Source: Bacteroidota bacterium
GTDB taxonomy: Bacteria; Bacteroidota; Bacteroidia; Bacteroidales; FEN-979
Direction of reading: 5' to 3'
Length of the DNA: 64,000 bases
Assembly: GCA_037134895.1 (NCBI GenBank)
Contig: JBAXLI010000013.1
Coordinates: 8,668 to 72,667, forward strand
In this document: in pieces, positions 2,733 through 38,097 of the stretch
How positions within the stretch are numbered: position 1 is the first letter of the stretch
Layout: every line of letters starts with the position of its first letter
Translations under genes and position numbers: made by a program
The notes under the pieces: generated by a model
The model's input: the letters and a program-made list of their open reading frames with translations, nothing else
What the model was told of the DNA's origin: nothing
Databases searched by the model: none

Positions 2733-2782
2733 AATACCGAGTAATGAGTATAATTATTCCATTTTCTTTTTTGTTACATTTG
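2733..2782 (+). promoter_or_regulatory. Candidate operator plus -7 box (site S6): AATACCGA-GTAA-TGAGTATA, then 22 nt, then TACATTTG
   Basis: The palindrome is at 2733-2752 and a TAnnTTTG-type box at 2775-2782, upstream of the OMP/DUF4136 gene cluster. It shares its architecture with six other sites in this window. Confidence 0.4.
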
Positions 2783-2951
2783 CACTACAATCAAAGTATT
2801 AAAATTGTCCAGAAAGCGTTTATTCATAAACAACATCAACACTCTATCAATAAATTTAACTGATACATGTTTTGCCCATTGAATTAATTACATTTGGTCC
2901 ATTCAATCCAGACAACATATTAAACCATGTCTCATAACTAAAATCGATACT

Positions 2952-3608
2952 ATGAAACAACGATTACTTTTATTAATAACTGCGGTGTGCACCACACTGA
3001 TTGTTGGGGCTCAAACAGTTGAAATTACTCCCATGGGCGGATATGTATTTGCATCGAAAATGAGCGGTGCCGATGGTTATATCCGGTTCAAAGACAATGC
3101 TATTTATGGGGGAATGGTCTCTATCGGGGTAAGCCGGGCTTTTGATGTTGACCTTATTTACAACCGTATCGACACCAAAGCCGAGGTGAACCTTTATAAT
3201 GCCATTGCCGGTAGCACATACAAGGAATCTCCACTCAGCATAAATTACATGAACGTTGGTTTTACTAAGAATTTCAGGATTAACAATACAATCGCACCTT
3301 TTATTGGCTTCAGTCTGGGCGCCTGCCTGATGGCTCCGAAAACAGATAACAGTTATGATTATTGGTTCTTTGATTTCGGTATCAGCGGTGGTGCCAAAGT
3401 TTATTTCGGTAAACGTATTGGTTTACGACTACAGGCGCAGATGTTTGTTCCTATGCAGGCCGCTGGTTATACTTTCTATTTCGGAACCAATGGTTACAAT
3501 AATGGTGTTTCGGTTTATTCAACCATGGTTCAGTTCGGTTTTACAGGCGGCCTCATTTTCAGACTGGGCCATGTTCCCGACATGAACAGTCCAAGGGTAA
3601 ATTATTAA
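2952..3608 (+). CDS. Outer-membrane beta-barrel protein (OmpW/porin-like small barrel)
   Basis: Signal peptide, alternating Gly/aromatic beta-strand pattern, and a C-terminal aromatic-rich strand. Confidence 0.55.
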   Translation: MKQRLLLLITAVCTTLIVGAQTVEITPMGGYVFASKMSGADGYIRFKDNAIYGGMVSIGVSRAFDVDLIYNRIDTKAEVNLYNAIAGSTYKESPLSINYMNVGFTKNFRINNTIAPFIGFSLGACLMAPKTDNSYDYWFFDFGISGGAKVYFGKRIGLRLQAQMFVPMQAAGYTFYFGTNGYNNGVSVYSTMVQFGFTGGLIFRLGHVPDMNSPRVNY

Positions 3609-3645
3609 ATTAATCACAATTAATTATAATCTAAACTCACAAATT

Positions 3646-4254
3646 ATGAAAGTTTTAAAACTATCATTTATCGCTTTGGGGATCTTTGCCATGGTTTCAT
3701 GTTCAAAGTATCCCGATGCTTCCAGCCGTCTGCTTGAGGACCTGACCGTTGTCACTCAGTATGATACGAAAGCTGATTTCGGGACCTACAAAACCTACAG
3801 TATTGCCCCCACTATCAAAAAAGTAACTGACAAAGACACCACCAACATCACGGGTTCCACAGCTACCGCAATCCTGCAACAAATCGAAGGGAATATGAAT
3901 GCAAGGGGGTATGTCAAGGCCGCTTCAGGTGACACAGCCGACCTGGGAATCACAGTAACCTACTACGAGAATACCTATGTATACACGTATTATTACAATT
4001 ATTGGGGGTATTATTATCCTTATTATCCTTACTACCCTTATTATCCAACAACCTATTATGCATCCTATACAGCAGGCCTGGCCATGATCGAGATGCAGGA
4101 CCTGAAGAATTACAATCCTACTACTCAGAAACTATATATCAGGTGGACGGCATTTATCAGGGGACTTCTCACCGGGACTCATTCAACAGGGGATATCACG
4201 AATGCAATTAACCAGGCATTTACTCAGACACCCGCTATAAAGACAAGCTTATAA
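3646..4254 (+). CDS. Lipoprotein, DUF4136-like, with an extreme Tyr-rich tract
   Basis: Lipobox (AMVSC). The overall layout resembles DUF4136 lipoproteins. Contains the tract YYENTYVYTYYYNYWGYYYPYYPYYPYYPTTYYASY. Confidence 0.5.
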   Translation: MKVLKLSFIALGIFAMVSCSKYPDASSRLLEDLTVVTQYDTKADFGTYKTYSIAPTIKKVTDKDTTNITGSTATAILQQIEGNMNARGYVKAASGDTADLGITVTYYENTYVYTYYYNYWGYYYPYYPYYPYYPTTYYASYTAGLAMIEMQDLKNYNPTTQKLYIRWTAFIRGLLTGTHSTGDITNAINQAFTQTPAIKTSL

Positions 4255-4276
4255 TTAATATTAAACTGTACAAGCT

Positions 4277-4936
4277 ATGAAGAAAATATTTATAATGCTT
4301 ATGATAGGCTTGCTTTTTGCAGCGGCTGTCAATGCACAGGAAGAAACCCAAAAATCATCTTTCGGATATAAACCATCATCATATTATTCCTTTGGCTGGA
4401 ACACTCTCTGGAGTGTAGGTAATTTCAATAAATGGGTTGCCAACGGCAGTCCTGCCGGTTTTAACCTCGGCGGACGTTATTTCATTCCCGGCACTAACCT
4501 GGCAGCCGGTTTCAACATTCAGTGGCAAAACGTATGGCAGGAATATCCTGCCCAGACATATTATGGAAGTAATGGCCTTGCCATTACGGCGATGAACTAC
4601 CGTTCAACCTGGATGGTACCCTTCCAGGCTGCTATCGATTATTATTTTATACCGTCCAAAATGATTTCCCCTTATATCAGTCTTGGTATAGGTGGAGATT
4701 ACATGGAACATCACCTGCTTATCCAGGAATTTGACATTTATAAAAGCACCTGGGATTTCTCACTTACGCCTGAGATCGGAGCCCTCATTAAGTTCGGGGC
4801 TTTCAGCAACTGGGGTGCAAATGTCGCATTCAACTATAAATGGACAACCAACAAAATCGAGTTTTATAATGGTAACTCATTAAAAAACCTGTCTATGATA
4901 CAGCTCAGGGTTGGGCTGTGCTACATCCTCAGGTAA
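4277..4936 (+). CDS. Outer-membrane beta-barrel protein
   Basis: Signal peptide (AAAVNAQ), beta-strand periodicity, aromatic-rich C-terminal strands. Confidence 0.5.
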   Translation: MKKIFIMLMIGLLFAAAVNAQEETQKSSFGYKPSSYYSFGWNTLWSVGNFNKWVANGSPAGFNLGGRYFIPGTNLAAGFNIQWQNVWQEYPAQTYYGSNGLAITAMNYRSTWMVPFQAAIDYYFIPSKMISPYISLGIGGDYMEHHLLIQEFDIYKSTWDFSLTPEIGALIKFGAFSNWGANVAFNYKWTTNKIEFYNGNSLKNLSMIQLRVGLCYILR

Positions 4937-8652: not shown

Positions 8653-8702
8653 TATACCTACCAATGAGTATTTTTAAACGAAATTATCATACAGATGATT
8701 TG
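8653..8702. promoter_or_regulatory. Candidate operator (site S5): TATACCTA-CCAA-TGAGTATT, with a weak box ATGATTTG 22 nt downstream
   Basis: The palindrome is at 8653-8672 in the divergent region between the Omp85 gene and the paralog-pair/sulfatase genes. The -7 box is imperfect and the orientation is ambiguous. This is the weakest of the seven sites. Confidence 0.3.
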
Positions 8703-14694: not shown

Positions 14695-14725
14695 AATTGA
14701 AAATCTAAATAACTAATGCTTAAGT

Positions 14726-16414: not shown

Positions 16415-16463
16415 CTTTATGAGAATTTATTTGTTTAATGCATTTCTTTATAACATCAGAAAA

Positions 16464-24444: not shown

Positions 24445-25665
24445 CTATCCAATCCGCATTCCAGATGCCAAAGGATCTGCTGCCTGTGGAAGTTTCGATG
24501 TAGTCCTCTTCTTCCATTCATCTTCCAGCAGTTCCCTGGCAGCCTGTTCCAGGAATTCGGGTGCGGACCATTTTCGCACATCGAAATTGTTCTTAATGTA
24601 ACCGTGACTCAGCATGAAGTCCTTCCCTATCTCAACTGAAACCAGGTTCTGCGATGACAGGTTCGGCACCATATCGACAAGCCTGATCCCTTCATAGGTA
24701 TCTTCAACATCACGATAGAAGGTCTGTTTGTCCAGGATGGCTGCTGCAGCATGTTTGTGCTCATTGGCCCAGCGCCCGACTTTGATCATGCCTTTCAGGA
24801 AGGCAACAGCTAATTCAGGGTGCTTTTCTGCCATAACATCGCTGCAGGTGATGGCAGCAGGGATATTGGCCACCTGCAAGGTCCAGTCAGGATACCTCGA
24901 GAGGTCTTCAATGGATTTAAATTTTCCTGTTGTTTCGGAGAGTATACTAAGCACCTTGCTCTGGCTGTACATGGCATCGATTACTCCTTTTTCAAGAGCT
25001 GTTTCCAATGGGCGGAATGCCAGGTCATGTTTATGATCGCGGCGAAGCCATAATTCTGACGGATTTTCCATTTCAGGGCCCATCATTTCAGGTATGTCAT
25101 ACCAATCATCCGGATAAGGGAATTCAACGATCTGAACATCATTCCTTGTCATACCATTTACTCTCAGCATCAGCTCGATTCCCTGCTCTTCCTGGATGCC
25201 CCACCAGTCGGTCTTTATTTTATTCTGGCTCCTGGATAAACCTATCTTTTTACCTTTCAGGTCAGCCATGCGGTATATATCGTCCCTTGAGCGTACGATC
25301 ATCACTCCGCCTTCTTTTGGCACATGTGTCACTCCTAAAAGCCTGGTTCTGCGAATATCTGCCTGTACGTGAATCGGAGGGAACAAGCCGCCAAAGCGGA
25401 TAATATTATCCATATTATGTATGTAGTGAGGATACCAGTCGTTTTCTTTGCGAGCCCGCAGATAAAGGTACTTCACATCCATCTTCTTATATATTTCCTT
25501 GGTCCAGCCCAGTTCCTGGTCTACATTGCTTGCTGAAACCAGCGGACAATTAGTGTAATAAACCTCATTCCAATCCAGCGGCACTGTTTTGAGTTTGCCT
25601 GCCTTTTTCGCATTGGCAATAATTTCTTCCATGGTCGGAGCCGTTCTTGTTGTTTCGTTTGCCAT
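24445..25665 (-). CDS. Cytoplasmic NMT1/SsuA-fold protein resembling DszB (2'-hydroxybiphenyl-2-sulfinate desulfinase)
   Basis: No signal peptide. Blocks match my recollection of Rhodococcus DszB: YTNCP vs YSNCP (catalytic Cys), HYIHNMDNIIRFGG vs HFTYDQPAYTRFGG (His...Arg with the same spacing), RTRLLGVT vs RTRLLGIT, ADLKGKKIGLS vs ADLAGRRIGVS, and WSAPEFL vs WAAPEFL. Confidence 0.6.
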   Translation of the reverse strand: MANETTRTAPTMEEIIANAKKAGKLKTVPLDWNEVYYTNCPLVSASNVDQELGWTKEIYKKMDVKYLYLRARKENDWYPHYIHNMDNIIRFGGLFPPIHVQADIRRTRLLGVTHVPKEGGVMIVRSRDDIYRMADLKGKKIGLSRSQNKIKTDWWGIQEEQGIELMLRVNGMTRNDVQIVEFPYPDDWYDIPEMMGPEMENPSELWLRRDHKHDLAFRPLETALEKGVIDAMYSQSKVLSILSETTGKFKSIEDLSRYPDWTLQVANIPAAITCSDVMAEKHPELAVAFLKGMIKVGRWANEHKHAAAAILDKQTFYRDVEDTYEGIRLVDMVPNLSSQNLVSVEIGKDFMLSHGYIKNNFDVRKWSAPEFLEQAARELLEDEWKKRTTSKLPQAADPLASGMRIG

Positions 25666-25736: not shown

Positions 25737-25785
25737 TAAAAATACGCTCATATGCTGTCATTGACAATACTTAACACTCAGTATA
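25737..25785 (-). promoter_or_regulatory. Candidate operator plus -7 box (site S2). Minus strand: TATACTGA-GTGT-TAAGTATT G, then 20 nt, then TATTTTTA
   Basis: The box is at 25737-25744 and the palindrome at 25766-25785, upstream of the DszB-like gene. About 50 nt are nearly identical to S1. Confidence 0.5.
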
Positions 25786-25832: not shown

Positions 25833-28343
25833 TCATTCAGGGGACCTTTTGATTATATGATCTCCATCTTCTTTTTTATCTCCCTTGCCGTTAACTTCCT
25901 TGCGAATATGTACATCCTGCTGAGGAAAAGGTATGATGATCCCTCGTTCCCTGAAGAGGCTGTCAATTGAAACAATCAGATCACTCCTCACATCGAAGCC
26001 GATATCGAAATGCGGCACCCAGAATTTTAAGCTGATGTGTACCGAACTGCTGCTGAATTTGGTTACAAATGCAAGAGGTTGCGGATCCTTCAAAATCCGG
26101 GAATCATTTTGCATCAGGTCAAGTAAAAGGCGTTTTGTCTTGTCAAGATCCGTTCCATAGGCAACACCGAGTAGCAGTTCAAATCTCCTGTGACTGCTTC
26201 CCAATGTCCAGTTCACAAGGTGCTGGTTTAATAAATCACCATTGGGAATTATGACGTCGGCACCATCCCAGGTAGTGACGACGCTGCTTCGGATCCCGAT
26301 CGATTTCATCCTCCCTGTCTGCCCTGCAAATTCCACGATGTCTCCAACATTTACAGGCTTTTCAAAGGCAATGACAAGCCCGCTTATCAGGTTATTGACC
26401 AGGGTCTGTAAGCCAAAACCGATACCTACACTCACAGCTCCCAGGATTATGGCAAAACGGTCCATGGGGAATCCTGCTGCAATAAATGCCACCAAAACCC
26501 CTGCAGTGATTATGGCAATCCGAATCAGTACCAGCCAACTGCCAAGTCCACCTTTTTTAGAGTTTTTATGTATAGACATATTATCAGACGACAGGAACAG
26601 GACAATCCGGGAAATCAAGGCTGAAAGGAAGATAACCAGCATGAAGATGAGAATACTTTGGTAATTGAAAGAAAACATGCCAATCGTGCGGGTTGTTGTC
26701 AATGAATCTCGAAATGGCAGGAACAAAGTTTGAAAATAATAGGTACTCCGTAAGATCAGGACAAACCAGCCGGCGAAACAGATCAAATAATAGAAGAATG
26801 GTAGATCTTTACTGGCTTTTTCATCGGGTAATAAGCGTGTTTTTCCTTCAGATCCCTGGTAAAAATAAAAGGAGATAAGCAGGGTTTCGTTTACAAAGCG
26901 GGCAGTCCAAAAGAGTAAAACAACAATGAAAGTAAATATTCCATTGGTCATGAAGATTTTGGCTAGGTTAAAACCGCCGGTAAGATTAAAATAGATAGCC
27001 GGAATCTGAAGCAAGGCCAGCAATCCGATTAGCACAAAAATGATCCTGTCTTTGATTTCCTTTTTTTTCTTTGATACAAGGAAGAAGATACCTGCTGAAA
27101 CTCCTGAAAAACTCAGTAAAAGCATGCTACACAATTCGAATGATGAATGCCGTAAAATCAAATTACTGATCAGGGCAAGAAGGAATAAAAGAATGAAAAA
27201 CAACCAGGTTTTGAACAAGAACGGTGTGAACGATTTTTTTAAAATCAAAATAAGCGAAAATGTGATGAGAATCCAGATAACACAATTGAAAATAAAAGGT
27301 GGCAATGGAAGAAAAAACTGTGAAATGGTCAGGGAGATCAGGATTGCAGACGCCAAGGGGTTTCCTAACACATGTCCGCTACCGGTGAGGTGCCCATGGG
27401 ATCCCTCGTTGTTCACTTTTCGCCTCAGCATGAGCAGGTACAAGTAGAGTCCTAAGGCAAAAACAAGTATCAGAATAATTTTATCACGATGATTTACGCT
27501 ATAAAAAAATATTGCAAGTTTAGCCTTTCCGTATGAATAGGTAATGATCTGACCGAAAGGCCTGTCATTGATGAGGTTTTCTCCAAAAAAGCCGAGTTCG
27601 TTTGTCCTGAATTGCTGAAATACTTTTGAATGTAATGATTCCGTTTCAATAATATCTGATTCAAGTTCGAATTTAAGCAGGTTTACCTGGATCTCAAGTT
27701 TCTGAATGCTATCCAATGAAGTCTTGAGTTTCGTGTTAACGGGGTTGATATCCCGGGTCAGAAAGAGGAGTTTCTGCAGATAACTTGTCATGGAAGCTGA
27801 ATCGACCGGGACCTGGTATATTATACTATCCATGGCAAGAGAATCAAGCCTGGACTGTGAGTGACCTAATGATCTGTGGTAAGCCAATATTTGCTGCAGG
27901 CGGTTGTCCGTTCTCTTCAACAATTCGTTCAGGAGGCGGCTGGTTGTCGTAAGGTTAGGCACCGTCTGAATTTTGTCCTCATTTGTAATAACGCCATCAA
28001 CAGCCTGCTCTCTCCAGCGCGTTAACTGAATTAATTCATCCCTGATCTCATGATATTTAAAGCCGATCCTGAGAAAATTCCTTGCTTTCTCGATTTCATT
28101 TTTAAGCAGAAAGAAATTCCTGCTTTGTTTAAGAACCAACTGGTGTTGCCGGTAGTTTGCCTGGCTTTGTTTTAAACCCAGGTCAGCCAGATCTTTAGCC
28201 TTGCTTTGTTTGGCGTGCATTTCAAAATCCAGGGCATGGACCGAATCCACAAGAGGGATGCTTACCTGAGCAAAGCAAGTGAAGCAGTAAAATGCAAGAC
28301 AGAATGCGAAAATGCTGAAAAATAATTTACCAGGCTGGCTCAT
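25833..28343 (-). CDS. Large mechanosensitive channel, MscS family (MscK/KefA-like)
   Basis: 836 aa. Signal/periplasmic coiled-coil N-terminal domain and about 11 TM segments. C-terminal MscS core: LISGLVIAFEKPVNVGDIVEFAGQTGRMKSIGIRSSVVTTWDGADVIIPNGDL. Confidence 0.85.
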   Translation of the reverse strand: MSQPGKLFFSIFAFCLAFYCFTCFAQVSIPLVDSVHALDFEMHAKQSKAKDLADLGLKQSQANYRQHQLVLKQSRNFFLLKNEIEKARNFLRIGFKYHEIRDELIQLTRWREQAVDGVITNEDKIQTVPNLTTTSRLLNELLKRTDNRLQQILAYHRSLGHSQSRLDSLAMDSIIYQVPVDSASMTSYLQKLLFLTRDINPVNTKLKTSLDSIQKLEIQVNLLKFELESDIIETESLHSKVFQQFRTNELGFFGENLINDRPFGQIITYSYGKAKLAIFFYSVNHRDKIILILVFALGLYLYLLMLRRKVNNEGSHGHLTGSGHVLGNPLASAILISLTISQFFLPLPPFIFNCVIWILITFSLILILKKSFTPFLFKTWLFFILLFLLALISNLILRHSSFELCSMLLLSFSGVSAGIFFLVSKKKKEIKDRIIFVLIGLLALLQIPAIYFNLTGGFNLAKIFMTNGIFTFIVVLLFWTARFVNETLLISFYFYQGSEGKTRLLPDEKASKDLPFFYYLICFAGWFVLILRSTYYFQTLFLPFRDSLTTTRTIGMFSFNYQSILIFMLVIFLSALISRIVLFLSSDNMSIHKNSKKGGLGSWLVLIRIAIITAGVLVAFIAAGFPMDRFAIILGAVSVGIGFGLQTLVNNLISGLVIAFEKPVNVGDIVEFAGQTGRMKSIGIRSSVVTTWDGADVIIPNGDLLNQHLVNWTLGSSHRRFELLLGVAYGTDLDKTKRLLLDLMQNDSRILKDPQPLAFVTKFSSSSVHISLKFWVPHFDIGFDVRSDLIVSIDSLFRERGIIIPFPQQDVHIRKEVNGKGDKKEDGDHIIKRSPE

Positions 28344-28378
28344 GCATCAATTGTTGGCATATAATCCTCTGTCTTTTA

Positions 28379-28903
28379 TCAGGCCGACGGCTTTCCCTTC
28401 AGAAAAATGTCGAGAACCACTTTGGGCCCAAGCACTCTGGAAAGTTCGTGAATGGCAAAAAAAGGAATAAAGGCGGTGAACACGATCAGTGAACCACCGA
28501 AGTACTCGTAAGTTCCGATATGAGATAAGGAATCCGTAATACCCTGCATTGTGTAGGTATGAAAAAAACCTTTTACCGATAATTCTATTGCATTAAAAAT
28601 TGCAAGCCAGACTGTAAACATTAATGATCTGCCAAGTATTGACCAGATCAGCGGCCTGTTTTCAAACCAATGGCCAAGCCTCATCATACTGCCTATTGAA
28701 ACAACTTTACCAAGTACCAATGCATTGATAAGCCCGAAACCCCATTCTGTATAAACAATGTTTTGTTCAGCAAGGACCAGACGTTTATAAGTGATAAATA
28801 CCGCAAAAAAAACCGCAAGGTATGCCACGTTGATCCAATATTCAATAAATTCTTTTTTAAATTTTTCTTTAAAGGTTTTCTTTGTTTTGACTTCTGCATC
28901 CAT
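28379..28903 (-). CDS. Hypothetical integral membrane protein (about 4 TM)
   Basis: Lys-rich N-terminus followed by four hydrophobic segments. No recognised family. Confidence 0.45.
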   Translation of the reverse strand: MDAEVKTKKTFKEKFKKEFIEYWINVAYLAVFFAVFITYKRLVLAEQNIVYTEWGFGLINALVLGKVVSIGSMMRLGHWFENRPLIWSILGRSLMFTVWLAIFNAIELSVKGFFHTYTMQGITDSLSHIGTYEYFGGSLIVFTAFIPFFAIHELSRVLGPKVVLDIFLKGKPSA

Positions 28904-28926: not shown

Positions 28927-28975
28927 TAAAAGTACATTCTTTCCTTACAATGTACAATACTTAATACTGAGTATT
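28927..28975 (-). promoter_or_regulatory. Candidate operator plus -7 box (site S3). Minus strand: AATACTCA-GTAT-TAAGTATT G, then 20 nt, then TACTTTTA
   Basis: The box is at 28927-28934 and the palindrome at 28956-28975, 24 nt upstream of ATG 28903. Confidence 0.5.
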
Positions 28976-28990: not shown

Positions 28991-29932
28991 TTATTTCCTT
29001 TTTAACAAGTCCCTGCCCCAGCGATATTGCCAGGCTATTCCTATCGTATTGAAATCACTTCCTGTGCGTGTTGAAACACCGGTACTAAGGTATAATTTCA
29101 GTGAGTTGTGGATGTTTAACGGCAGTGCAAAGGTAAGGCCGAGGCGGGTGTTCTTCTGCATAGCGTTTCCCTCAGCGCCATTCACTGAAGGCCGGCCACC
29201 CCAATAATAGGTGCCATCAATTGCTGCCCAGATGCCAGACCTGAAGTTGTAAATCACATGTCCCTGGATATATCCTATTGGAGATAAGGACAAGGAATTC
29301 CCCTGGTAAAATTCATGGTCAACAGTGTAAAATGAAGCTCCTACAGCCAATTCCATAAACAGGGGGCCGAATTTTTTGGATGCGCCTATTTCGGGTTTAA
29401 AGGTAAACCTGTTCGTTCCGATGTTAACAAGTCTTTCAGGATCGTATTGACTGAAAGGCAAATTAATCTGAAGGCTCGCACCAACGACTAGATTCTGTTT
29501 ATAATTCTTAAAGCCAGATAAAGGCAATGCCGGAGCTCCAATGAAATTCACTGTTATCCGAACACGGGGATCAGCAAATCCTTCAACATTCCGGGTTAAC
29601 TGTTGTCCCTGGAAATCTGCAGAACCACTAAGCCATGCAAAGGGTATGATCACGTCGATCTTGCCTGAAATACCTCCAAAATCAATGGAACGGGCATAAG
29701 CTAATACAGGACCATGAACCTGAATATGTGCATTTTCAAGTTGAATTGCAGGGTCAAATAAAACACTTCCCTCCTGGTATATATAACCAGCGATCAAAAA
29801 ATTCAATCCGACTGGGGTGTTTGAATAGGCTCTGGGCTCAAGATCCTGGGCCCGGACAAGGGATGATTTTGAAACAAAAAAGATAGCAACGAATAGAATT
29901 AAACACTTTATCTTAAATCCTTGCAGGGTCAT
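28991..29932 (-). CDS. Outer-membrane channel of the 'MetA-pathway of phenol degradation' transporter family
   Basis: Signal peptide, then QDLEPRAYSNTPVGLNFLIAGY, the typical N-terminal motif of this barrel family. Terminal ...WQYRWG. Confidence 0.6.
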   Translation of the reverse strand: MTLQGFKIKCLILFVAIFFVSKSSLVRAQDLEPRAYSNTPVGLNFLIAGYIYQEGSVLFDPAIQLENAHIQVHGPVLAYARSIDFGGISGKIDVIIPFAWLSGSADFQGQQLTRNVEGFADPRVRITVNFIGAPALPLSGFKNYKQNLVVGASLQINLPFSQYDPERLVNIGTNRFTFKPEIGASKKFGPLFMELAVGASFYTVDHEFYQGNSLSLSPIGYIQGHVIYNFRSGIWAAIDGTYYWGGRPSVNGAEGNAMQKNTRLGLTFALPLNIHNSLKLYLSTGVSTRTGSDFNTIGIAWQYRWGRDLLKRK

Positions 29933-29938
29933 ATTCCA

Positions 29939-30721
29939 TCAGGATTTGGTTCTTCGCAACAAGGCATCACCATCGCTGTGGCTGTCGAAATAATACAGTT
30001 TGGCTACGGTTATGCGCTTTGCGAGAAGGCTGCAGGCAAGGCTTGCAAGGAAGGCGCCTGCAAACGGACCGATCCAATAGATCCACCATCCCGTCCACTC
30101 ACCGGATATAATTGCCGGGCCAAGACTACGTGCAGGATTTGTACTGGTTCCTGAGATTGCTGCTTCCAGGGGAACCATTATCGCATAGAGAAACGGAATC
30201 ATAAACGGAGTAAACTGCCGGAGGTGTCTGAATCCAATAAAAATTACAAGAAGTGAGACCAAGGCAAAAGTTGTGATAACCTCGCCAAACAAAACGGTAT
30301 AAACGGAGTATCCTTCTCCCGGCACGGTTGCACCGAACAAAACACTCCGCCCCATATCACCCCAGAGGAGGAGGGGCAGACAGCCAGCAACAGCACCGGT
30401 CAATTGTGCCAGTATGTATGTGATTGCCAGGCGTGGTTCAATCTTACGAAACAACAGGAATACCATTGTAACTGCCGGGTTGATATGCGCCCCGCTGACT
30501 TTTCCTATCGGGGATAGTGCAATCGATGCGCCTATAGATCCAAAAAGGAAACCGGTGATCATTTGTCTTACTTTAACATTCGGGATCAGCTGCCCTAAAG
30601 GACTACCATTCCCGAACATAATAATAACGAGTGACAGGCCGCCCAGCAATAACAGAGCAGTACCAATGAATTCGGCAACAAAAAACTGAACGCGGTATCT
30701 TAGATCATTTACATCATTCAT
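29939..30721 (-). CDS. MIP-family channel (aquaporin/aquaglyceroporin-like)
   Basis: Two NPA boxes (SGAHINPAVT and GTSTNPARSLGPA) and six TM segments. Confidence 0.85.
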   Translation of the reverse strand: MNDVNDLRYRVQFFVAEFIGTALLLLGGLSLVIIMFGNGSPLGQLIPNVKVRQMITGFLFGSIGASIALSPIGKVSGAHINPAVTMVFLLFRKIEPRLAITYILAQLTGAVAGCLPLLLWGDMGRSVLFGATVPGEGYSVYTVLFGEVITTFALVSLLVIFIGFRHLRQFTPFMIPFLYAIMVPLEAAISGTSTNPARSLGPAIISGEWTGWWIYWIGPFAGAFLASLACSLLAKRITVAKLYYFDSHSDGDALLRRTKS

Positions 30722-31868
30722 ACAATGTAAAATTTATGCAAACAGGAGAAACTATTTTGACCGTTTGAGATGTTTGACTCAACTGGCCGCTGGCCTGATC
30801 GATCCTGAAGAGAACAATATTATCCGAGTTCTGGTTTGCTACAAAGAGCCAGTGACCTGTTGGATCGATTTCAAAACTGCGCGGGGTCTCACCCCCGGTT
30901 GAAACCCATTCGACCGGTGTCAGGCTTCCATTTTTTGAATTAATACTGAAGAGTCCGATATTATCAGCCCCCCTGTTCGAAACATAAAGAAATTTTCCTG
31001 TGGCGTCCAGAGCTATCTCCGCCGCAGTATTTTCACCGTGGAAGATTTTGGGAAGCGTTGAGATGGTTTGCTTCGCCAGCATCCTACCGGTTTCTGATTC
31101 ATATGAAAAGCTGGTAATTGTTGAGCTTAACTCATTCAATACGTAAATAAATTTCCCTGATGGTGGAAACGCAATATGTCTTGGACCTGAGCCGGGATCC
31201 AACTTTACAAACCCTGAGTCTATGGGGAAAAGAGAACCATTGCCGGCATCGAACCGGTATTTTAAGATTTTGTCAATTCCAAGATCGGCTATCATGACAT
31301 ACAGGTTGTCGTTGGTCACCCTGATATAATGAGCATGCGGTCCGGTCTGCCGTTTAGGGTTAGGACCTGACCCCGTATTTTGAATGAATGCTGTATGCTC
31401 ACCAAGTTTACCATCCCTTCCTACCGGGAACACAACTGAATTACCACCGTTGTAATTTGCGACCATCAGGTATCGGGCTGATTTGTCAAGTGACAAATGT
31501 GCCGGAGCTGCTCCCAGTGAAGAAATCTGCTGAAGCAATGTCAGCTTACCCGACTCCTTGTTGATTGCAAATACACTAACTGCCCCGCTTTGCTTATTAT
31601 GAAAAGAATCTGTCTCATTAACTGTATATAGGAATCGTCCTTTTGAATCAATGGTGATAAAGGATGGGTTTTCCGTTTTTGCGACAAGCCCTAAAGGTTT
31701 CATGTTCCCTTTTGCAGGATTGAAACTGTAGGCATAAATTCCTTCACTGCCCTTCCCGGTATACGTTCCTACAAAAACAAGGCATTTATGATGGGGTTCG
31801 GAGCACGCATGTAGAAACAGGATCGGAAATAGTATAAATGCCAGATTTAAAATCCGATTGTGCTTCAT
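30714..31868 (-). CDS. Lactonase, 7-bladed beta-propeller family (6-phosphogluconolactonase-like), lipoprotein
   Basis: Lipobox (LHAC). Repeated propeller motifs include GAAPAHLSLDKSARYLMVANY, GPRHIAFPPSGKFIYVLNE and PRSFEIDPTGHWLFVANQ. Confidence 0.75.
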   Translation of the reverse strand: MKHNRILNLAFILFPILFLHACSEPHHKCLVFVGTYTGKGSEGIYAYSFNPAKGNMKPLGLVAKTENPSFITIDSKGRFLYTVNETDSFHNKQSGAVSVFAINKESGKLTLLQQISSLGAAPAHLSLDKSARYLMVANYNGGNSVVFPVGRDGKLGEHTAFIQNTGSGPNPKRQTGPHAHYIRVTNDNLYVMIADLGIDKILKYRFDAGNGSLFPIDSGFVKLDPGSGPRHIAFPPSGKFIYVLNELSSTITSFSYESETGRMLAKQTISTLPKIFHGENTAAEIALDATGKFLYVSNRGADNIGLFSINSKNGSLTPVEWVSTGGETPRSFEIDPTGHWLFVANQNSDNIVLFRIDQASGQLSQTSQTVKIVSPVCINFTLYE

Positions 31869-31920
31869 TCTCTTGGGGATAATGTTAAAATCTTCTTTTG
31901 AAATACCTTAAAAAAAACTG

Positions 31921-32976
31921 CTATATTTCCGAGAACTGGATGACAACTTTGATGTCCTCAGGCCGTCTTTGCAAGGCAAGCGTAAAATCCTCAGGTTTTT
32001 CCCGCCTGCTGATGAGTTTTGCCAGCCAGTTTTTATCAGCTTTTGCAAGCGTTTGACCGGCTCGGTACCATTGGCGCTTATTTGCATTCACACTACCAAC
32101 GATTACAGTATTTCTTAAGACTGCGGAAGCAGCCATATCAGCAGTTGCGGCCTTTGTCATATGACCTCCATGGCCGACGCCTGTCAGACATAAAATTCCA
32201 TTTGCAGCTAATTGCTGGATACAAGCTTCAATTACTGGTCCCACTCCCGTACATTCTACAATTGCATCCGGTTCAAATCCGATATCAGCGACATTGCCAG
32301 AGTGATAGATAGCACCCAGTTCTCTAACCAGGTCAGGTTTGGACCCTGACTCCATCCTGTCAAGGACATGGATTTCTTCTATCCCCCAGATCTTCAAACT
32401 GAGGGCCGCCAGCAGTCCTATCGGACCTGCACCTGTAACCAGCACTCTGGAAGGCTCCCAGAAAGAACGGCGGCTTATCATACCTATCTGCTCCAATGCT
32501 TTAGTTACAACCGTTGTAGGTTCAAGGAGAACACCCAGGATACCCAGTGAAGAATCGACTTTAATAGCGTATTCAGGCTCTATCCTCCATCGTTCCGACA
32601 TATATCCGTGGATCTCTTTGATCCCCCGTTCTGTATAAAGTCCGTTACGGCACATGTCCCATTCCCCCACCGCACAATTCGGACAAGGGACAGGATCGGG
32701 ACGGCGCACGATCCCTACAACCAGGTCCCCTTTTTTGAAACCGCCTGCAGTGCCGGGATCTATTACCCGGCCCAGGGATTCATGCCCCAAAATAAGATAC
32801 TGCTGGCCCGGAGGGGCCCAGCCATACTTCCCTTCGACAATTTCGACATCTGTACCGCATACTCCGACGGCAATAGCCTCCACGAGGATTGACCCATCCC
32901 TCAAATCCGGCTCCGGCATATCCATAAGCCTCGCCGTTCCCGGCTTTTTAGGTTCGACAGTAATTGCTTTCATCAT
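31921..32976 (-). CDS. Zn-dependent MDR-family dehydrogenase, glucose 1-dehydrogenase-like
   Basis: MKAITVEP...VGVCGTDVEIVEGKYG...LGHESLG, a structural-zinc Cys cluster (PDPVPCPNCAVGEWDMC) and a GAGPIGLL Rossmann motif. Resembles archaeal-type glucose dehydrogenases. Confidence 0.65.
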   Translation of the reverse strand: MMKAITVEPKKPGTARLMDMPEPDLRDGSILVEAIAVGVCGTDVEIVEGKYGWAPPGQQYLILGHESLGRVIDPGTAGGFKKGDLVVGIVRRPDPVPCPNCAVGEWDMCRNGLYTERGIKEIHGYMSERWRIEPEYAIKVDSSLGILGVLLEPTTVVTKALEQIGMISRRSFWEPSRVLVTGAGPIGLLAALSLKIWGIEEIHVLDRMESGSKPDLVRELGAIYHSGNVADIGFEPDAIVECTGVGPVIEACIQQLAANGILCLTGVGHGGHMTKAATADMAASAVLRNTVIVGSVNANKRQWYRAGQTLAKADKNWLAKLISRREKPEDFTLALQRRPEDIKVVIQFSEI

Positions 32977-33006
32977 GACGCTTAACGTTTGTATTGATAA
33001 AGATTC

Positions 33007-34482
33007 CTAAACACCAATCTCAAAGATGTGATACCCCCATGCAGGCAGATCAATAAAAATACCTTTTGACACTACCTCACTGCCTTCCCAATCATAAAAA
33101 GCAGGGCTCATCATTTCACTGAACCTGACCGGTTTGCCTCCCAGCTCAGAAAAGGGCAGACGGACAAGGCACTGACCGGCATGGCATGAATAGTTTATTA
33201 CAACCAGGACCCGATCGTTATCCTTTCCCTCCCAGGCAAATGCCAGGAAGAAATCCGAACTTCCATTCCCGTCCCAGGCCGATTTGCATTCGAGCTGTTG
33301 CCAATGTCCGTCTCGAAAAACAGGTTTTTTTATTAGAGAAAGAAAGTTTGTGTAAAACTTATGCAATGCCGGTTCTGTTGGTTCCTGCGGGGCTCGCACC
33401 AGGTGAGGGGAAATCCGTTTTTTCCGCCCTTCAAATTGTCCCTGGTGGAAAAACCTTAAGCCGGGTGATAAGAATGTTATCACGGCTGCAGCTTCATGCT
33501 TTTTCAGATCGAACGTTGCAGCCGCGCGCGGTTCGTCATGATTTTCAAGGAAGCGGGCAAGTTTATCCTGGTAATCCGGTACTGCAAACAAATGTTCTCG
33601 TACAGCTTTCGTATGGCCTTCTCTCAAACGGTCATATAGCCGTTTATCATAAGCATAATCAAACCCCAGTTGCTGCATGTCCCACTCCATTTCCCAATAT
33701 ACTTCGGCCATGAAGCAGAAACCGGGAACTTTTTCGCGAACTGCTTTTATAGCGGATGACCAGAAGGCTTGAGCCTTGCGTCCCCATGTCTTTTCAAAAA
33801 CCTCGGGGAGGATAAGCATCGCCATATCGCAACGTACGCCGTCACACTGTCCTGAGATCCGAAGAAGTTCCTTGGTCATTGCTTTCACGGTTGCAGGATT
33901 ACTATAATCCAGCTGAAGAGTATCGGGCCATCCTGCAAAATAAGGGTCCCTGCCGTATGCGAGTATCAATTCACCCTGATTACGTTTTACCCTTATGTAA
34001 TTCTGCGGATAATGTTCAAGGTCACTCTCAGTTCCTGAAACAAAATAATCAGGGTGGTCCTCAAGCCAGGGATGGTCGGGTCCCATATGATTCGGTACAA
34101 AATCGAGCATGAGTTTAAGTCCACGCTTTTTTAACCTGGCACGGAGTTTCTTCAGGGCGGGATCTCCGCCAAGTTCAGGATGTACATGATAAGCTGCGAT
34201 TGCAAATCCGGAACCAGCTATATCCTCCTCGTGAAGATCCGGCAATGTATTCTCAAAATCACCAAGCCATTCAGGGTTTTCGCGGGAAATTTTCCGCCCA
34301 AGCTCACCTGTGGTCCACACGCTAAGAAACCAGATCCAGTCAAAACCCAGATTTGCCAAGCGATCCAGTTCGATATCGGGGATATCATCAAGAGTGGCTT
34401 TCCGGCCAAGGTCCTGTGACAGTTCTGTGAGCCAAACCCTGGTGTTCACCTGGTACAAAGATGGATACTTCGGTCTCTTCAT
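33007..34482 (-). CDS. GH13 alpha-amylase-family glycoside hydrolase/transferase (GlgE-like catalytic core)
   Basis: KLMLDFVPNHMGPDHPW (region II-like), DGVRCDMA (nucleophile region), FMAEVYWE and FLENHDEPR motifs. Start MKRPKYPSLYQVN at 34482 is preferred over the track start 34542. Confidence 0.75.
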   Translation of the reverse strand: MKRPKYPSLYQVNTRVWLTELSQDLGRKATLDDIPDIELDRLANLGFDWIWFLSVWTTGELGRKISRENPEWLGDFENTLPDLHEEDIAGSGFAIAAYHVHPELGGDPALKKLRARLKKRGLKLMLDFVPNHMGPDHPWLEDHPDYFVSGTESDLEHYPQNYIRVKRNQGELILAYGRDPYFAGWPDTLQLDYSNPATVKAMTKELLRISGQCDGVRCDMAMLILPEVFEKTWGRKAQAFWSSAIKAVREKVPGFCFMAEVYWEMEWDMQQLGFDYAYDKRLYDRLREGHTKAVREHLFAVPDYQDKLARFLENHDEPRAAATFDLKKHEAAAVITFLSPGLRFFHQGQFEGRKKRISPHLVRAPQEPTEPALHKFYTNFLSLIKKPVFRDGHWQQLECKSAWDGNGSSDFFLAFAWEGKDNDRVLVVINYSCHAGQCLVRLPFSELGGKPVRFSEMMSPAFYDWEGSEVVSKGIFIDLPAWGYHIFEIGV

Positions 34483-34516
34483 GATGTTTTCTACGGTTTC
34501 TGACCGTATCTCCCTG

Positions 34517-37249
34517 TTATTGAATCTTCTTTGTGCCGGCACCCTTTACGAATGCCGCATTTCTCCCGACTTCAAGCGCTTTCCCGGGATCCATAATCCC
34601 ATAAAGCTCTATGATCTTCGCAACTACCCCGGTCCAGCCTGTCTGGTGGCTGGCCCCAAGCCCTGCTCCATTGTCGCCATGAAAGTACTCATAAAACAAG
34701 AGGTAGTCTTTCCAGTGAGGATCAGCCTGGAACTTCTCAGTACCGCCATATACCGGTCTGCGGCCATGTTCATCGCGAAGAAAGGTACTTGCAATACGGT
34801 TGGCAATCTCCTTACTTACCTCGAAAAGGTTCATCAGTTTACCTGAACCTGTTGGGCATTCGATCTTGAAATTGTCTCCATAATAGAGATAGAACTGTTG
34901 GAGCGCTCTTATGATCATGGTATTCACCGGCATCCATACAGGTCCCCTCCAGTTTGAGTTGCCTCCGAACATGCCGTTATTCGATTCGGCAGGCAGGTAA
35001 TCGACCCTGTATTCCTGTCCCCCGAAATGGAGGACGTAAGGATTCTTTTCATGGAACTTTGAAAGGGAGCGAATACCGTGAGGGCCGAGGAATTCGTTCT
35101 CGTCGAGCATCTTTGTAAGAATTCTGCGGAGCCGTTCAGGGTTTACCAGGGCAATGATCCCCCGTTCCGCCACACCAAAGTGGCCAGGTCCCGTGGGATG
35201 GATTGTTTGGAGCAGTTCGGGCATCCTTCGCAAACGTTCCCTGAGACGTGCCATTGCCTGGGGTACCTGCTCCCGTTGCGCTTTCTCTATCACGGTTGTA
35301 GCGCATAACGGCAGCAGCCCAACCATGGACCGTACCTTTAGCCTAGCCGCCCTGCCATCGGGAAGCCTCAGAAGATCATAATAGAAGCCGTCCTCTTCGT
35401 CCCACATGCTGTCTTCACCGGGATGGTTCATGGAGGCTGCAATATAATAGAAATGCTCCATGAATTTTATGACCATGCCCTCGTAGTTGGGATCATGAAC
35501 TGAAAGTTCCGCTGCAAGTTCTAACATATTCTGGCTGAAAAGAGCCATCCAGGCTGTTCCATCGGCCTGTTCAAGATGACCACCGGTAGGAAGGGGAGCA
35601 GAGCGGTCGAAAACCCCGATGTTATCGAGACCAAGAAATCCGCCTTCAAACACATTCTTGCCAAAGCGGTCCTTCCGGTTCACCCACCATGTGAAATTCA
35701 GCAGAAGTTTATTGAAAGTGGTTTTCAGGAAATCCACATCAGTTTCCCCTGTCAATGCCTTTTGTGAGAAATGAAGGAAAAGTGTAGCCCAGGCATGTAC
35801 GGGAGGATTCACATCACTGAAGTTCCATTCATAAGCAGGCATCTGCCCGTTTGGGTGAAGGTATAAGCCGCTGAGCATAAGCTGCATCTGGTCCTTGGCA
35901 AAATCAGGATCAACGATTGCGATCGGGAGAGTGTGAAAGGCCAGGTCCCAGGCAGCATACCAGGGGTACTCCCATTTATCAGGCATGGAAATGATGTCCT
36001 CGTTAAGCATATGGTACCATTCAAAGTTCCTGCTTTGACGGAATCCTTTATGCAGGGGGTTGGATTTATGCTCGTCAAGCCAGTTGTCACCATCGAAGAA
36101 AAAGAATTGCTTGCTCCATAGCATGCCGGCTATGGCCTGCCGCATCACGTTGGCTGCATCTTCACTGACTGAAGGAGGAGTGACGGACTTGTAAAATTCA
36201 TCGGCTTCACGCAGCCTGTCGGCAAATACTTCATCAAATGTTTTACCAAAAGGCCTGGCCTTTTTGCCATCAGCCATTTTAGTTAATCTAAGACGGACCA
36301 CTGCGGACTTACCTGCGTCGATACTTATGTTATAATGCGCAGAGACTTTGGTGCCCTGTTTCTCGGGATTTATTGATTGCTGATTACCCTGTACGATAAA
36401 ATCATTGATACCGTCCTTCGCATGAGGACTTTCATTTTTTGTCCCTAGGAAAAGCCTTTCATGGTTTGTCTCGTTCTCGGTGAAGAGCAGGGGCACATCT
36501 CCTTCACAGGAAAAAATGAATTCACCAAGCAATTTATGAGCAGCAGAAACAACGCTTGAACCTGCCCCGGCCTTTACCTGTTCCAACTTCGGTTTTACTG
36601 AAGCCCTGTTCGATTCATCGATCCAGGACGACCAGTCATTCCTGAACCAGAGGGTTGGCAGTATATGCAATCCGGCCTCCTCAGGTCCGCGGTTGAATGC
36701 AGTGATCTTTACAAGGATGTCTTCCGGTCCGTCTTTGGCATATTCTACAAAGACGTCGAAATAGCGGTCCTCATTGAAGACCCCGGTGTCGAGTAGTTCA
36801 TACTCCATCTCCTCCCGGGAACGCTGACCGTTCGTTTTTACAAGATCTTCATATGGATAGGCTGCCTGAGGGTACTTATATAGGTACTTCATGTAAGAGT
36901 GGGTGGGCGTGGAATCAAGATAGAAGTAATACTCCTTGACATCCTCTCCGTGATTGCCCTGGCTGTTGGTCAGTCCGAAAAGCCTTTCCTTCAGAATGGG
37001 ATCCTTCCCATTCCAGAGTGCAAGAGCAAAACAAAGCCGCTGTTTGTCGTCAGATATACCAGCGATCCCGTCTTCTCCCCAACGATATGCTCTTGACCTG
37101 GCATGATCATGGGTAAAAAAATTCCAGGCATCTCCGCCTTCACTATAGTCTTCGCGAACAGTTCCCCATTGGCGTTCGCTTAAATAGGGTCCCCATTTTT
37201 TCCACGGGCTTGTATTTTCCCTGGCTTCCTTTAATCTGATCTTTTCCAT
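34517..37249 (-). CDS. GH63-like (MGH1/glucosidase-type) glycoside hydrolase
   Basis: About 910 aa. The N-terminus (PWKKWGPYLSERQWGTVREDYS...AWNFFTHDHARSRAYRWGEDGIAG) is typical of the large bacterial GH63-like glucosidases. It has a C-terminal (alpha/alpha)6-type region. Start MEKIRLKE at 37249 is preferred. Confidence 0.65.
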   Translation of the reverse strand: MEKIRLKEARENTSPWKKWGPYLSERQWGTVREDYSEGGDAWNFFTHDHARSRAYRWGEDGIAGISDDKQRLCFALALWNGKDPILKERLFGLTNSQGNHGEDVKEYYFYLDSTPTHSYMKYLYKYPQAAYPYEDLVKTNGQRSREEMEYELLDTGVFNEDRYFDVFVEYAKDGPEDILVKITAFNRGPEEAGLHILPTLWFRNDWSSWIDESNRASVKPKLEQVKAGAGSSVVSAAHKLLGEFIFSCEGDVPLLFTENETNHERLFLGTKNESPHAKDGINDFIVQGNQQSINPEKQGTKVSAHYNISIDAGKSAVVRLRLTKMADGKKARPFGKTFDEVFADRLREADEFYKSVTPPSVSEDAANVMRQAIAGMLWSKQFFFFDGDNWLDEHKSNPLHKGFRQSRNFEWYHMLNEDIISMPDKWEYPWYAAWDLAFHTLPIAIVDPDFAKDQMQLMLSGLYLHPNGQMPAYEWNFSDVNPPVHAWATLFLHFSQKALTGETDVDFLKTTFNKLLLNFTWWVNRKDRFGKNVFEGGFLGLDNIGVFDRSAPLPTGGHLEQADGTAWMALFSQNMLELAAELSVHDPNYEGMVIKFMEHFYYIAASMNHPGEDSMWDEEDGFYYDLLRLPDGRAARLKVRSMVGLLPLCATTVIEKAQREQVPQAMARLRERLRRMPELLQTIHPTGPGHFGVAERGIIALVNPERLRRILTKMLDENEFLGPHGIRSLSKFHEKNPYVLHFGGQEYRVDYLPAESNNGMFGGNSNWRGPVWMPVNTMIIRALQQFYLYYGDNFKIECPTGSGKLMNLFEVSKEIANRIASTFLRDEHGRRPVYGGTEKFQADPHWKDYLLFYEYFHGDNGAGLGASHQTGWTGVVAKIIELYGIMDPGKALEVGRNAAFVKGAGTKKIQ

Positions 37250-37355
37250 AGTTCTTACGGTTTTCCCTGACAAATACATAAGACAAATAGAAGAGAATGT
37301 AAAAACATCCTCTTCTATCTGCAAGGTTTAAAAAACAATGTGTATAATTGAATAT

Positions 37356-37913
37356 TTACTTTTTCTTGGCAGTATCTGCCTTTTTTGGTTGTTCCTTTTT
37401 AACAGCAGCAGTGTCAGTCTTCTGAGGTACAACTGCAGGCACGGCAGCGGCCAATTTCATCTGGAACTTCCCTTCTTTATCAAACAGAAGTGATTGGGCA
37501 TCATTACCTTTTATGATTTTAACTTCATATGCTTCATCGTAGGCATAGGCCTCCGTAAGCTTATACTCCATCTTTTTAATATATTTCGAAATGTCATTAT
37601 CAACATCCTTGACAGCCATAGTGGTTCTGATCTGCACCGGATTTTTTGCCTTATCAGCTTCTGTTTCCGATTTCAGAAACTTCCCCTTCTGATCAAAGAT
37701 AAACCATTCTGAAGCATTACCCTTCTGAGCTTTCATTTCAAAGAAAGGCAGATGCTTGTATGCTTCCACTGCTTTGTATCCATCAAAATTTTTCTTAATG
37801 TATTTCTCAATCTTTGAGTCTAGGTCCTTTAAATTCATGGTTACTTTTTCCTGAGCCTGGATAAGCCCGGTTAACAGAATACCCAAAACGAATAATGTAA
37901 ATGCTTTTTTCAT
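37356..37913 (-). CDS. Periplasmic PepSY-like two-repeat protein
   Basis: Signal peptide and an internal duplication (KYIKKNFDGYKAVEAY...WFIFDQKGKF / KYIKKMEYKLTEAYAY...SLLFDKEGKF). Lys-rich tail. Confidence 0.5.
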   Translation of the reverse strand: MKKAFTLFVLGILLTGLIQAQEKVTMNLKDLDSKIEKYIKKNFDGYKAVEAYKHLPFFEMKAQKGNASEWFIFDQKGKFLKSETEADKAKNPVQIRTTMAVKDVDNDISKYIKKMEYKLTEAYAYDEAYEVKIIKGNDAQSLLFDKEGKFQMKLAAAVPAVVPQKTDTAAVKKEQPKKADTAKKK

Positions 37914-38048
37914 AATTTTTGTATTTAAGGTTTAGTTTATTGTAAAGTTCCAAAAAATCAAGTTCCATTCAGCATACCTGGTAAAATATTTCCTTAGACT
38001 CAAAGGATCATAAACCGAAGAGGACGAGAAAATGAAAAATATTCAAGT

Positions 38049-38097
38049 CAAAGGTATTCCCGCATTGAAGCAGGCACAATACTGATAAATGAGTATT
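38049..38097 (-). promoter_or_regulatory. Candidate operator plus -7 box (site S4). Minus strand: AATACTCA-TTTA-TCAGTATT G, then 20 nt, then TACCTTTG
   Basis: The box is at 38049-38056 and the palindrome at 38078-38097, upstream of the PepSY-like/GH63/GH13 gene string. The flank CAGGCACAATACTGA is nearly identical to S7 (CAGGAACAATACTGA). Confidence 0.5.

Follow-up and report, generated by a model that had tools for sequence, protein, structure and literature searches.

A promoter-embedded palindrome as the probable operator of a LuxR/GerE-type regulator subfamily in Bacteroidota

LuxR and TraR bind the lux and tra boxes as dimers of GerE-type helix-turn-helix (HTH) proteins; these boxes are palindromes of 18-20 bp that lie about 42 bp upstream of the transcription start and overlap the -35 element, in a class II-type arrangement. 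NarL sites of the 7-2-7 kind consist of inverted heptamers (TACYYMT) separated by 2 bp, and DosR sites are palindromes of 20 bp. The present analysis concerns a palindrome of 20 bp, wATACTsA-N4-TsAGTATw, that recurs in a stretch of 64,000 nucleotides (nt) from the metagenome-assembled genome of an uncultured Bacteroidota bacterium of the order Bacteroidales (GenBank assembly GCA_037134895.1, contig JBAXLI010000013.1, positions 8,668 to 72,667, forward strand), hereafter the window, where an earlier note had described it as the mark of a local regulon. Judging from the comparison of sequences, the palindrome probably serves as operator for a subfamily of LuxR/GerE-type transcription factors that spans the Bacteroidota, one member of which is encoded in the window at 22497-23255.

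The window system resembles those of LuxR and TraR in its HTH family, the size of its palindrome and the predicted promoter position of the latter. As a mechanism, the placing of a LuxR-type dimer near -43 is conventional. In contrast to them, it has a PAS_3 sensor and no autoinducer-binding domain, another operator sequence, a promoter of the Bacteroidota -33/-7 type, and no LuxI partner. In the form TACTCAT-NN-ATGAGTA the palindrome resembles the TACYYMT heptamers of NarL in their 7-2-7 arrangement. NarL and DosR are phosphorylated response regulators, however, whereas the proteins described here are mostly one-component PAS proteins, with one protein of the receiver (REC) type adjoining a site (locus L086).

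A search of solved structures with the window regulator gave PDB 3CLO as the best match (E = 3.6e-8), followed by EL222, VpsT, GerE and NarL. Entry 3CLO, which we take to be a structural-genomics entry from Bacteroides thetaiotaomicron, is a ‘transcriptional regulator’ of 258 amino acids (aa), similar in length to the window protein and bearing the same helix signature, ISVNTVNRHRQNILEKL, the reported match being to the HTH region only; we know of no function or DNA target for it. The light-activated LOV-HTH protein EL222 (E = 1.2e-4) is likewise a small one-component protein that joins a PAS-type sensor to a LuxR-type HTH, but the flavin-cysteine motif of its LOV domain, NCRFLQ, is absent from the window protein on sequence inspection.

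Among PAS-LuxR proteins, PimM, CfaR and their relatives in Streptomyces recognize a 16-bp operator, CTVGGGAWWTCCCBAG, in the -35 region of their targets (PMC9774167). They share with the window system the architecture of a PAS domain followed by a LuxR-type HTH and a palindromic operator in the -35/-33 region, located in the window by predicted boxes. In contrast, wATACTsA-N4-TsAGTATw does not fit their operator, and they act in Actinobacteria as pathway-specific regulators of antibiotic clusters; their relationship to the window protein is known from shared Pfam domains only. In Bacteroidota, the LuxR-family protein CdhR (PG1237) of Porphyromonas gingivalis is encoded next to a hemerythrin-like gene, and its binding site is undefined (PMC11018363). 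Similarly, fusions of hemerythrin and GerE domains adjoin copies of the present motif, and CdhR may belong to the same subfamily as the window regulator. Literature searches found no description of this palindrome or of any operator of a Bacteroidota PAS-LuxR protein; the literal motif string does occur in a paper on the operator of Bacillus FadR, an unrelated protein of the TetR family.

The palindrome and its promoters in the window

A search with AATACTNANNNNTNAGTATT, allowing up to two mismatches, gave exactly seven matches in the 64-kb window, at 2733, 8653, 17046, 22428, 25766, 28956 and 38078, versus a mean of 0.21 in 100 dinucleotide-preserving shuffles, none of which reached seven. 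All seven sites of the earlier note were thus recovered, each at the coordinates given there, and their number is far above chance. A symmetrised position weight matrix (PWM) derived from the seven scored them at 21.4-26.4 bits, the runner-up 20-mer in the 64 kb reaching 12.0; nothing exceeded 12.0 bits past 38.1 kb, in agreement with the note, which had seen no copy in the intergenic regions of the last 26 kb. All seven palindromes are intergenic, in a window that contains 5.1 kb of intergenic DNA. Only the 20 bp and a promoter box are conserved among the sites, and the flanks differ.

Read in the orientation of the downstream gene, five sites (S1, S7, S2, S3 and S4) consist of the palindrome, 21 nt starting with G, and a TAnnTTT[G/A] box. 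The G directly 3' of the palindrome makes the -33 position ATTG, a match to TTTG in three of four positions. By the criterion of a Bacteroidota sigma-A promoter (-7 element TAnnTTTG, with TTTG at -33, 19-21 nt upstream), a box is present at six of the seven sites. The five are canonical, S6 is near-canonical and S5 is atypical; the fixed distance holds for the five, at 21 nt, whereas S6, as the note had already stated, is one nucleotide longer and S5 lacks a proper box. The sites, boxes and operons are as follows (+ and - denote the strand).

22428..22447, -: S7 palindrome, AATACAGAACTGTCAGTATT (gene-oriented), common to two divergent promoters and the sole site with G at position 7 of both halves
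22399..22406, -: S7 -7 box, TACATTTG, 21 nt from S7, promoter of the 180-aa gene and the glycyl radical enzyme (GRE) operon
22453..22460, +: -7 box, TACATTTG, 5 nt from the S7 palindrome, in the promoter of the PAS-LuxR gene itself
22497..23255, +: PAS_3 and GerE (LuxR-type) regulator of 252 aa, recognition helix SMHTVNTHRSNILEK
17091..22345, -: S7 operon, comprising a 180-aa protein (21806-22345), GRE (19312-21729), a PFK-like protein (18067-19224) and GRE activase (17091-18053)
17046..17065, -: S1 palindrome, AATACTCATCGTTAACTATT
17017..17024, -: S1 -7 box, TATTTTTG, 21 nt from the palindrome
12952..16980, -: S1 operon, comprising a 155-aa protein, CoA-disulfide-reductase (CoADR)/rhodanese and SulP
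25766..25785, -: S2 palindrome, TATACTGAGTGTTAAGTATT
25737..25744, -: S2 -7 box, TATTTTTA, 21 nt from the palindrome
23277..25665, -: S2 operon, comprising an NMT1/SsuA-like protein of 406 aa and an AI-2E family transporter
28956..28975, -: S3 palindrome, AATACTCAGTATTAAGTATT
28927..28934, -: S3 -7 box, TACTTTTA, 21 nt from the palindrome
25833..28903, -: S3 operon, comprising a membrane protein of 174 aa and an MscS-like channel
38078..38097, -: S4 palindrome, AATACTCATTTATCAGTATT
38049..38056, -: S4 -7 box, TACCTTTG, 21 nt from the palindrome
28991..37913, -: S4 operon, comprising a 185-aa protein, GH63, GH13, a glucose-dehydrogenase-like protein, a lactonase, MIP and an outer-membrane channel
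2733..2752, +: S6 palindrome, AATACCGAGTAATGAGTATA, beginning 1 nt past the stop codon of a DUF1295 gene
2775..2782, +: S6 -7 box, TACATTTG, 22 nt from the palindrome, with a second TACATTTG 63 nt before the ATG
2952..4936, +: S6 cluster, comprising an outer-membrane beta-barrel protein, a DUF4136 protein and a 219-aa protein resembling outer-membrane proteins (OMPs)
8653..8672, +: S5 palindrome, TATACCTACCAATGAGTATT, between an Omp85-like gene (-) and a paralogue pair with a sulfatase gene (+)
8614-8621: TATATTTG, on the side of the Omp85-like gene, 31 nt from the S5 palindrome

Between 12952 and 37913, 18 genes on the minus strand form five consecutive operons, each headed by the motif, with the regulator gene (22497-23255) as the one plus-strand interruption. 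Gene families in the window were assigned with Pfam and NCBIfam, and the assignments made earlier by eye were upheld: OMP/DUF4136, sulfatase, SulP, CoADR-rhodanese and GRE with its activase and PFK-like companion, as well as NMT1/SsuA-like, AI-2E, MscS, MIP, lactonase, dehydrogenase, GH13 and GH63. The 180-aa protein encoded first in the S7 operon has no family match. The GRE falls well below the cut-off of every NCBIfam equivalog (446 versus 1100 for HypD, and likewise for HpsG, CutC and other models), and a PFK-family gene and an activase gene always accompany it, in the window (17091-22345) as in loci L004, L005, L124, L248 and L249.

Two further observations concern individual sites. The spacers of S1 (17025-17045) and S2 (25745-25765) are identical at 14 of 21 positions (G..-ATGAC...ATATG.GCG), which exceeds the likeness among the other spacers and may reflect a second local element or chance. 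At S5, TATATTTG stands at 31 nt (21 + 10), one helical turn beyond the canonical distance; on the other side of this site, two adjacent genes for paralogous secreted proteins of about 215 aa (8863-9528 and 9557-10198), for which there is no family assignment, precede the sulfatase gene.

Recurrence of the motif in other genomes

In every relative for which DNA was examined, the regulator gene and an orthologue of the 180-aa gene are transcribed divergently. Between the two, L004, L124-L127 and L248-L251 have the palindrome and, at 20-21 nt from it towards the 180-aa gene, a [T/G]AnnTTTG box, while in L005 this position holds no site of at least 9 bits. No neighbour of the regulator other than the 180-aa gene is strictly conserved, and the GRE gene comes next in only some genomes. 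S7 does head the GRE operon, which the earlier note had linked to a defined gene set, but the constant companion of the regulator is the 180-aa gene and not the GRE gene. Further canonical sites are found in front of orthologues of the 406-aa NMT1/SsuA-like gene (L004, L124, L125, L061, L097 and L099), CoADR-rhodanese genes (L055 and L248) and OMP/DUF4136 clusters (L005, L015 and L249), the spacer in front of the latter being 21 nt in L005 and 20 nt in L249/L250. Footprinting upstream of orthologous operons, as the note had proposed, therefore finds the palindrome, the spacing and the box again in related metagenome-assembled genomes (MAGs).

The spacing recurs, without having been selected for, in samples of different origin. 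At 17 additional PWM sites in other loci, TAnnTTT is found at exactly 21 nt in 10 cases, and other offsets are singletons. A scan of metagenomes was made with the palindrome alone, without selection for the box, and the matches listed include 115 evaluable sites. Among these, a perfect TAnnTTTG is present at offset 21 in 19 of 115, versus 0-2 at any other offset between 0 and 41, and a box matching at least five of six positions is present at offset 21 in 33 of 115, versus about 3 elsewhere. Sixteen of the 124 palindromes listed lie within long open reading frames (ORFs). In the same sample, the base following the palindrome is G in 14 and T in 8 cases on the side of the box, whereas the opposite side has T in 20 of 22, an asymmetry which indicates that a -33-like TTG is created on the promoter side. 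Some metagenome copies have another setting: in L145, L163, L170, L176, L193 and L216 the 20-mer is part of a different repeat with AAATAC/GTATTT-rich flanks and no promoter box, and in L140, L155 and L195 three contigs have identical flanks around it, again without a promoter box, probably as part of a mobile element or phage.

When one genome per species was scanned with the palindrome, 21 nt and TAnnTTT as the pattern, at least 120 hits in at least 118 stretches were obtained. The matches listed are mostly from Bacteroidota of many orders, including Pedobacter, Prevotella/Segatella, Bacteroidales, Cytophagales, Flavobacteriales, Saprospiraceae and Chitinophaga, a bias that stems in part from the inclusion of the box in the search. 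Positions that the pattern leaves free carry a signal of their own, since the 120 listed hits show complementary bases 7 and 14 in 76, G after the palindrome in 61 and G after TAnnTTT in 75. Two MAGs labelled Brevundimonas (L040) and Thalassovita (L079) contain the module typical of Bacteroidota, in which a PAS-LuxR gene is accompanied by the palindrome, a TAnnTTTG box and a gene resembling those of TonB-dependent receptors; this module is near-identical to that of L036, L094 and L109, and the two contigs are probably mis-binned.

Sites are concentrated near regulator genes. There are 7 in 38 kb in the window and 1-4 per 12-20 kb in its relatives, while 12 extra sites were found in about 0.9 Mb around sites unlinked to a regulator, or about 1 per 80 kb. 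The clustering near the regulator gene is real. The motif itself is not confined to this locus; it is phylum-wide and probably common to many paralogous LuxR-type regulators with different sensors.

The adjoining regulators and their recognition helix

The product of 22497-23255 is the sole GerE-family protein encoded in the window. It matches PF00196 (GerE) over residues 191-242 (E = 9.4e-15), while its PAS_3 score of 23.2 bits is slightly below the cut-off of 25.6; PAS_3 is clear in the homologues, which form more than 100 clusters at 90% identity and are 69-86% identical to the window protein. Among Pfam models only GerE, PAS_3 and HTH_23 matched it, and Autoind_bind did not.

A hidden Markov model built from 120 homologues of the window regulator found a GerE-family ORF in 34 of 118 eight-kb loci around the listed matches of the genome scan. 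In 27 of the 120 listed hits, the boundary of a GerE-type gene is at most 132 nt from the palindrome, and the products are typically 245-269 aa long and mostly of the PAS-LuxR type. The regulator gene ends 5-76 nt upstream of the palindrome on the same strand in 14 of these 27, is divergent in 9-12, according to how three ORFs that overlap the palindrome are counted, and is itself the downstream target in 3. In a sample of 18 regulators adjacent to the motif, all match GerE, 13 match PAS_3 and 2 have a hemerythrin domain; on sequence inspection, the sample also includes one receiver-type, response regulator-like protein and one multidomain protein of 760 aa. The earlier note had named the neighbouring PAS-LuxR protein as the candidate binder, and comparative evidence now places that protein in a family tied to the motif.

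The arrangement of these genes varies. In L004 (10001-20083), L005 (5910-10982), L124 and L125, 3-5 PAS-LuxR paralogues form tandem or clustered arrays, each paralogue adjoining its own motif-headed target, unlike the window genome, which has a single PAS-LuxR copy in this region. The hemerythrin-GerE fusions that adjoin motif copies are found in Prevotella-type loci.

While the overall identity of the adjacent regulators is only 16-24%, they have a common recognition helix, S-x-[H/N]-T-V-x-T-H-R-x-x-[I/M/L]. The residue that follows H-R in this helix covaries with base 7 of the neighbouring palindrome. When it is Arg, base 7 is C in 33 of 42 half-sites; when it is Gln, Ser, Gly, Thr or Cys, base 7 is G in 25 of 30 (Fisher p = 5e-10). 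In a Smith-Waterman alignment the same residue is matched with K192 of NarL, one of the base-contacting residues in the NarL-DNA structures, while BLASTP of the HTH region against an approximate NarL C-terminal sequence returned no alignment. The pairing of helix residue and base 7 is a candidate specificity rule. Since Ser follows H-R in the window regulator, the covariation predicts that this protein would prefer G7.

Promoter mechanism, alternatives and meaning

Members of the proposed subfamily, mostly of about 250 aa with an N-terminal PAS domain, would bind as dimers on one face of the DNA, each dimer contacting a pair of half-sites (core TACTsA) separated by roughly a turn of the helix. 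The site is embedded in a predicted sigma-A promoter, in which the proximal end of the palindrome and the following G form a -33-like TTG, with TAnnTTTG 20 nt further on. If the predicted box lies at about -12 to -5, the palindrome would extend from about -53 to -34, with its centre at about -43.5, close to the value of -43 proposed earlier and overlapping or abutting the -33 element; this would match the geometry of class II sites, whose centres are at about -41.5 to -43.5 and abut or overlap the -35/-33 element. A dimer bound to the inner 16 bp, as for NarL, would leave the outer TT and the G as a -33 TTG for sigma region 4 beside the proximal monomer. It would then adjoin sigma region 4 and might bring about class II activation once the PAS domain is in its signalling state. 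Spacing precise to a single nucleotide points to a stereospecific contact, and hence to activation, which we consider the likelier outcome at target promoters; that the protein is a class II activator as opposed to a repressor is inferred from this geometry.

At the regulator's own promoter the arrangement is different. Where the regulator gene is divergent, the far side of the palindrome is followed at 5-7 nt by a second TAnnTTT box in 13 of 22 cases, the window among them, versus 0 of 18 where it is not. The S7 palindrome would cover about -37 to -18 of the regulator promoter, and an operator located 5 nt from the -7 box suggests autorepression. One dimer at S7 might thus activate the operon of the 180-aa protein and GRE while repressing the regulator gene.

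Several observations weigh against binding of this regulator to all seven sites as an activator. At S6 the spacer is 22 nt before TACATTTG and another TACATTTG lies nearer the gene, and at S5 no acceptable box is found 21 or 22 nt away on either side. About two thirds of the perfect palindromes in the metagenome matches listed have no box at 21 nt, and they are heterogeneous, some being in unrelated repeats. The covariation is uncorrected for phylogeny, while switches do occur inside an orthologous group. Moreover, promoters with a -33-like TTG and a near-consensus -7 box could be self-sufficient, which fits repression equally well. Finally, the G7/G7 half-sites predicted for a Ser-type helix are found only at S7, while the two position 7 bases are C/T at S1, G/T at S2, C/T at S3, C/G at S4, G/C at S6 and T/C at S5.

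This last point is central to the strongest alternative, in which the sites are split among paralogous PAS-LuxR regulators: the neighbouring protein would control only S7 and its own gene, Arg-type or other paralogues from other parts of the genome would act at S1-S6, and the palindrome would mark a promoter class and not one regulon. We regard this as a serious possibility, though less likely than not. It accords with the relation between base 7 and the helix residue across regulator-site pairs, in which the Ser of the window protein corresponds to the only G7/G7 site, and with related genomes, where paralogues occur in tandem arrays and the 406-aa gene and small genes for 85-103 aa each have their own adjacent paralogue. 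In the window, in contrast, the 406-aa gene has no adjacent paralogue, a single GerE gene lies amid the seven sites, and these are far denser there (7 in 38 kb) than around unlinked sites. None of the other six sites is a clean Arg-type palindrome; they are hybrids, as might also be expected if one protein had relaxed recognition. Two readings therefore stand side by side, one in which hybrid sites are recognized by this regulator and one in which the promoter class is shared with paralogues from the rest of the genome, and control of all seven sites as a single regulon by the neighbouring gene is not established. The earlier reading is largely right in kind, too local, and overconfident about a single regulon.

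The palindrome might also be the operator of a repressor, at intrinsically active promoters with TTG at -33 and a consensus -7 element, where the dimer would block sigma region 4 until released by a ligand. The selection of G after the palindrome on the promoter side only, which completes the -33-like TTG, the near-consensus -7 boxes, the ability of GerE-family proteins to repress, and the clearly occlusive geometry at the regulator's own promoter are all compatible with this proposal. A repressor, however, does not need spacing to the nucleotide, yet the distance is 21 nt in unselected samples and neighbouring offsets are almost empty; in addition, target sites lie upstream of the core promoter and do not cover it, and the offsets of 21 at target promoters and 5-7 at regulator promoters suggest two outcomes from one site. 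Repression of target promoters hence seems unlikely.

It is very improbable that an unrelated global regulator binds the palindrome and that LuxR-type genes are merely among its targets. Many motif-bearing promoters do lack a nearby LuxR gene, but base 7 of a site varies together with a residue in the recognition helix of the LuxR-type protein encoded beside it, which is hard to reconcile with an unrelated binder, and the palindrome is linked throughout to proteins that differ in their sensor domains and agree in the helix motif. The CRP/FNR, NtcA, CsoR/CstR, ArsR and Rrf2 operators are not known to fit the half-site or the gene linkage.

A dispersed repeat, resembling repetitive extragenic palindromes (REP) or miniature inverted-repeat transposable elements (MITE), or the terminator hairpin of the upstream gene can be dismissed with near certainty, even though several copies begin 1-35 nt past the upstream stop codon and a separate metagenome repeat family contains the identical 20-mer: similarity among the copies ends with the 20 bp and the box, all copies in the window are intergenic, the distance to the promoter box is fixed, even in unselected samples from other genomes, and the site is kept upstream of orthologues across orders, all of which agrees with the note's proposal of a promoter-coupled protein-binding site, here a predicted one. 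As an RNA hairpin, the palindrome has a minimum free energy of 0 to -2.9 kcal/mol at six of the seven sites (z from -1.6 to +0.8), no better than shuffles; no U-tract is required, the sequence itself is kept and not merely its pairing, and an Rfam scan of the whole window gave no family match.

Other repeats were seen in the distal part of the window. Intergenic tandem arrays of 7-nt units are made of ACGAGTG (8.6 copies, 58602-58661), TAATTCG (7.4 copies, 58713-58764) and TTACGAA (8.7 copies, 62998-63058); TTACGAA is the reverse complement of rotated TAATTCG, so that similar arrays in opposite orientations flank the genes at 58.8-63.0 kb. An unusually long gap of 551 nt (56780-57330) contains 2.4 copies of a 39-nt unit (56918-57013) and only a low-complexity ORF, with no Rfam match.

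Outside polysaccharide utilisation, transcriptional regulation in Bacteroidota is poorly mapped. PAS-LuxR proteins are abundant in these genomes, and no operator or regulon for them was found in the literature, although the structure of a close homologue (3CLO) has been solved. The present analysis gives a predicted operator at a constant promoter position, together with a candidate rule of specificity, which relates the residue after T-H-R to base 7, and thereby a route to sequence-based prediction of regulons for hundreds of uncultured and cultured Bacteroidota. In the window, it links the GRE operon to sulfur-related genes (CoA-persulfide-reductase-like, SulP, SsuA/NMT1-like and sulfatase), to osmotic and envelope genes and to the GH63/GH13 sugar operon, which leads to testable hypotheses of a common signal. 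A bolder idea, to which we give little credence at present, is that a whole GerE subfamily specific to Bacteroidota, with its PAS, hemerythrin, REC and other sensors, itself supplies upstream promoter recognition through one fixed box embedded in the promoter, paralogues being kept apart by one base pair and one helix residue. The relation of the GerE fold to sigma region 4 is apparent from the match of 13 of the 18 sampled regulators to the Sigma70_r4_2 model. If this idea were true, such proteins would be modular and re-programmable ‘sensor-coupled -33 readers’, by which many one-component sensors would act on a single promoter architecture.

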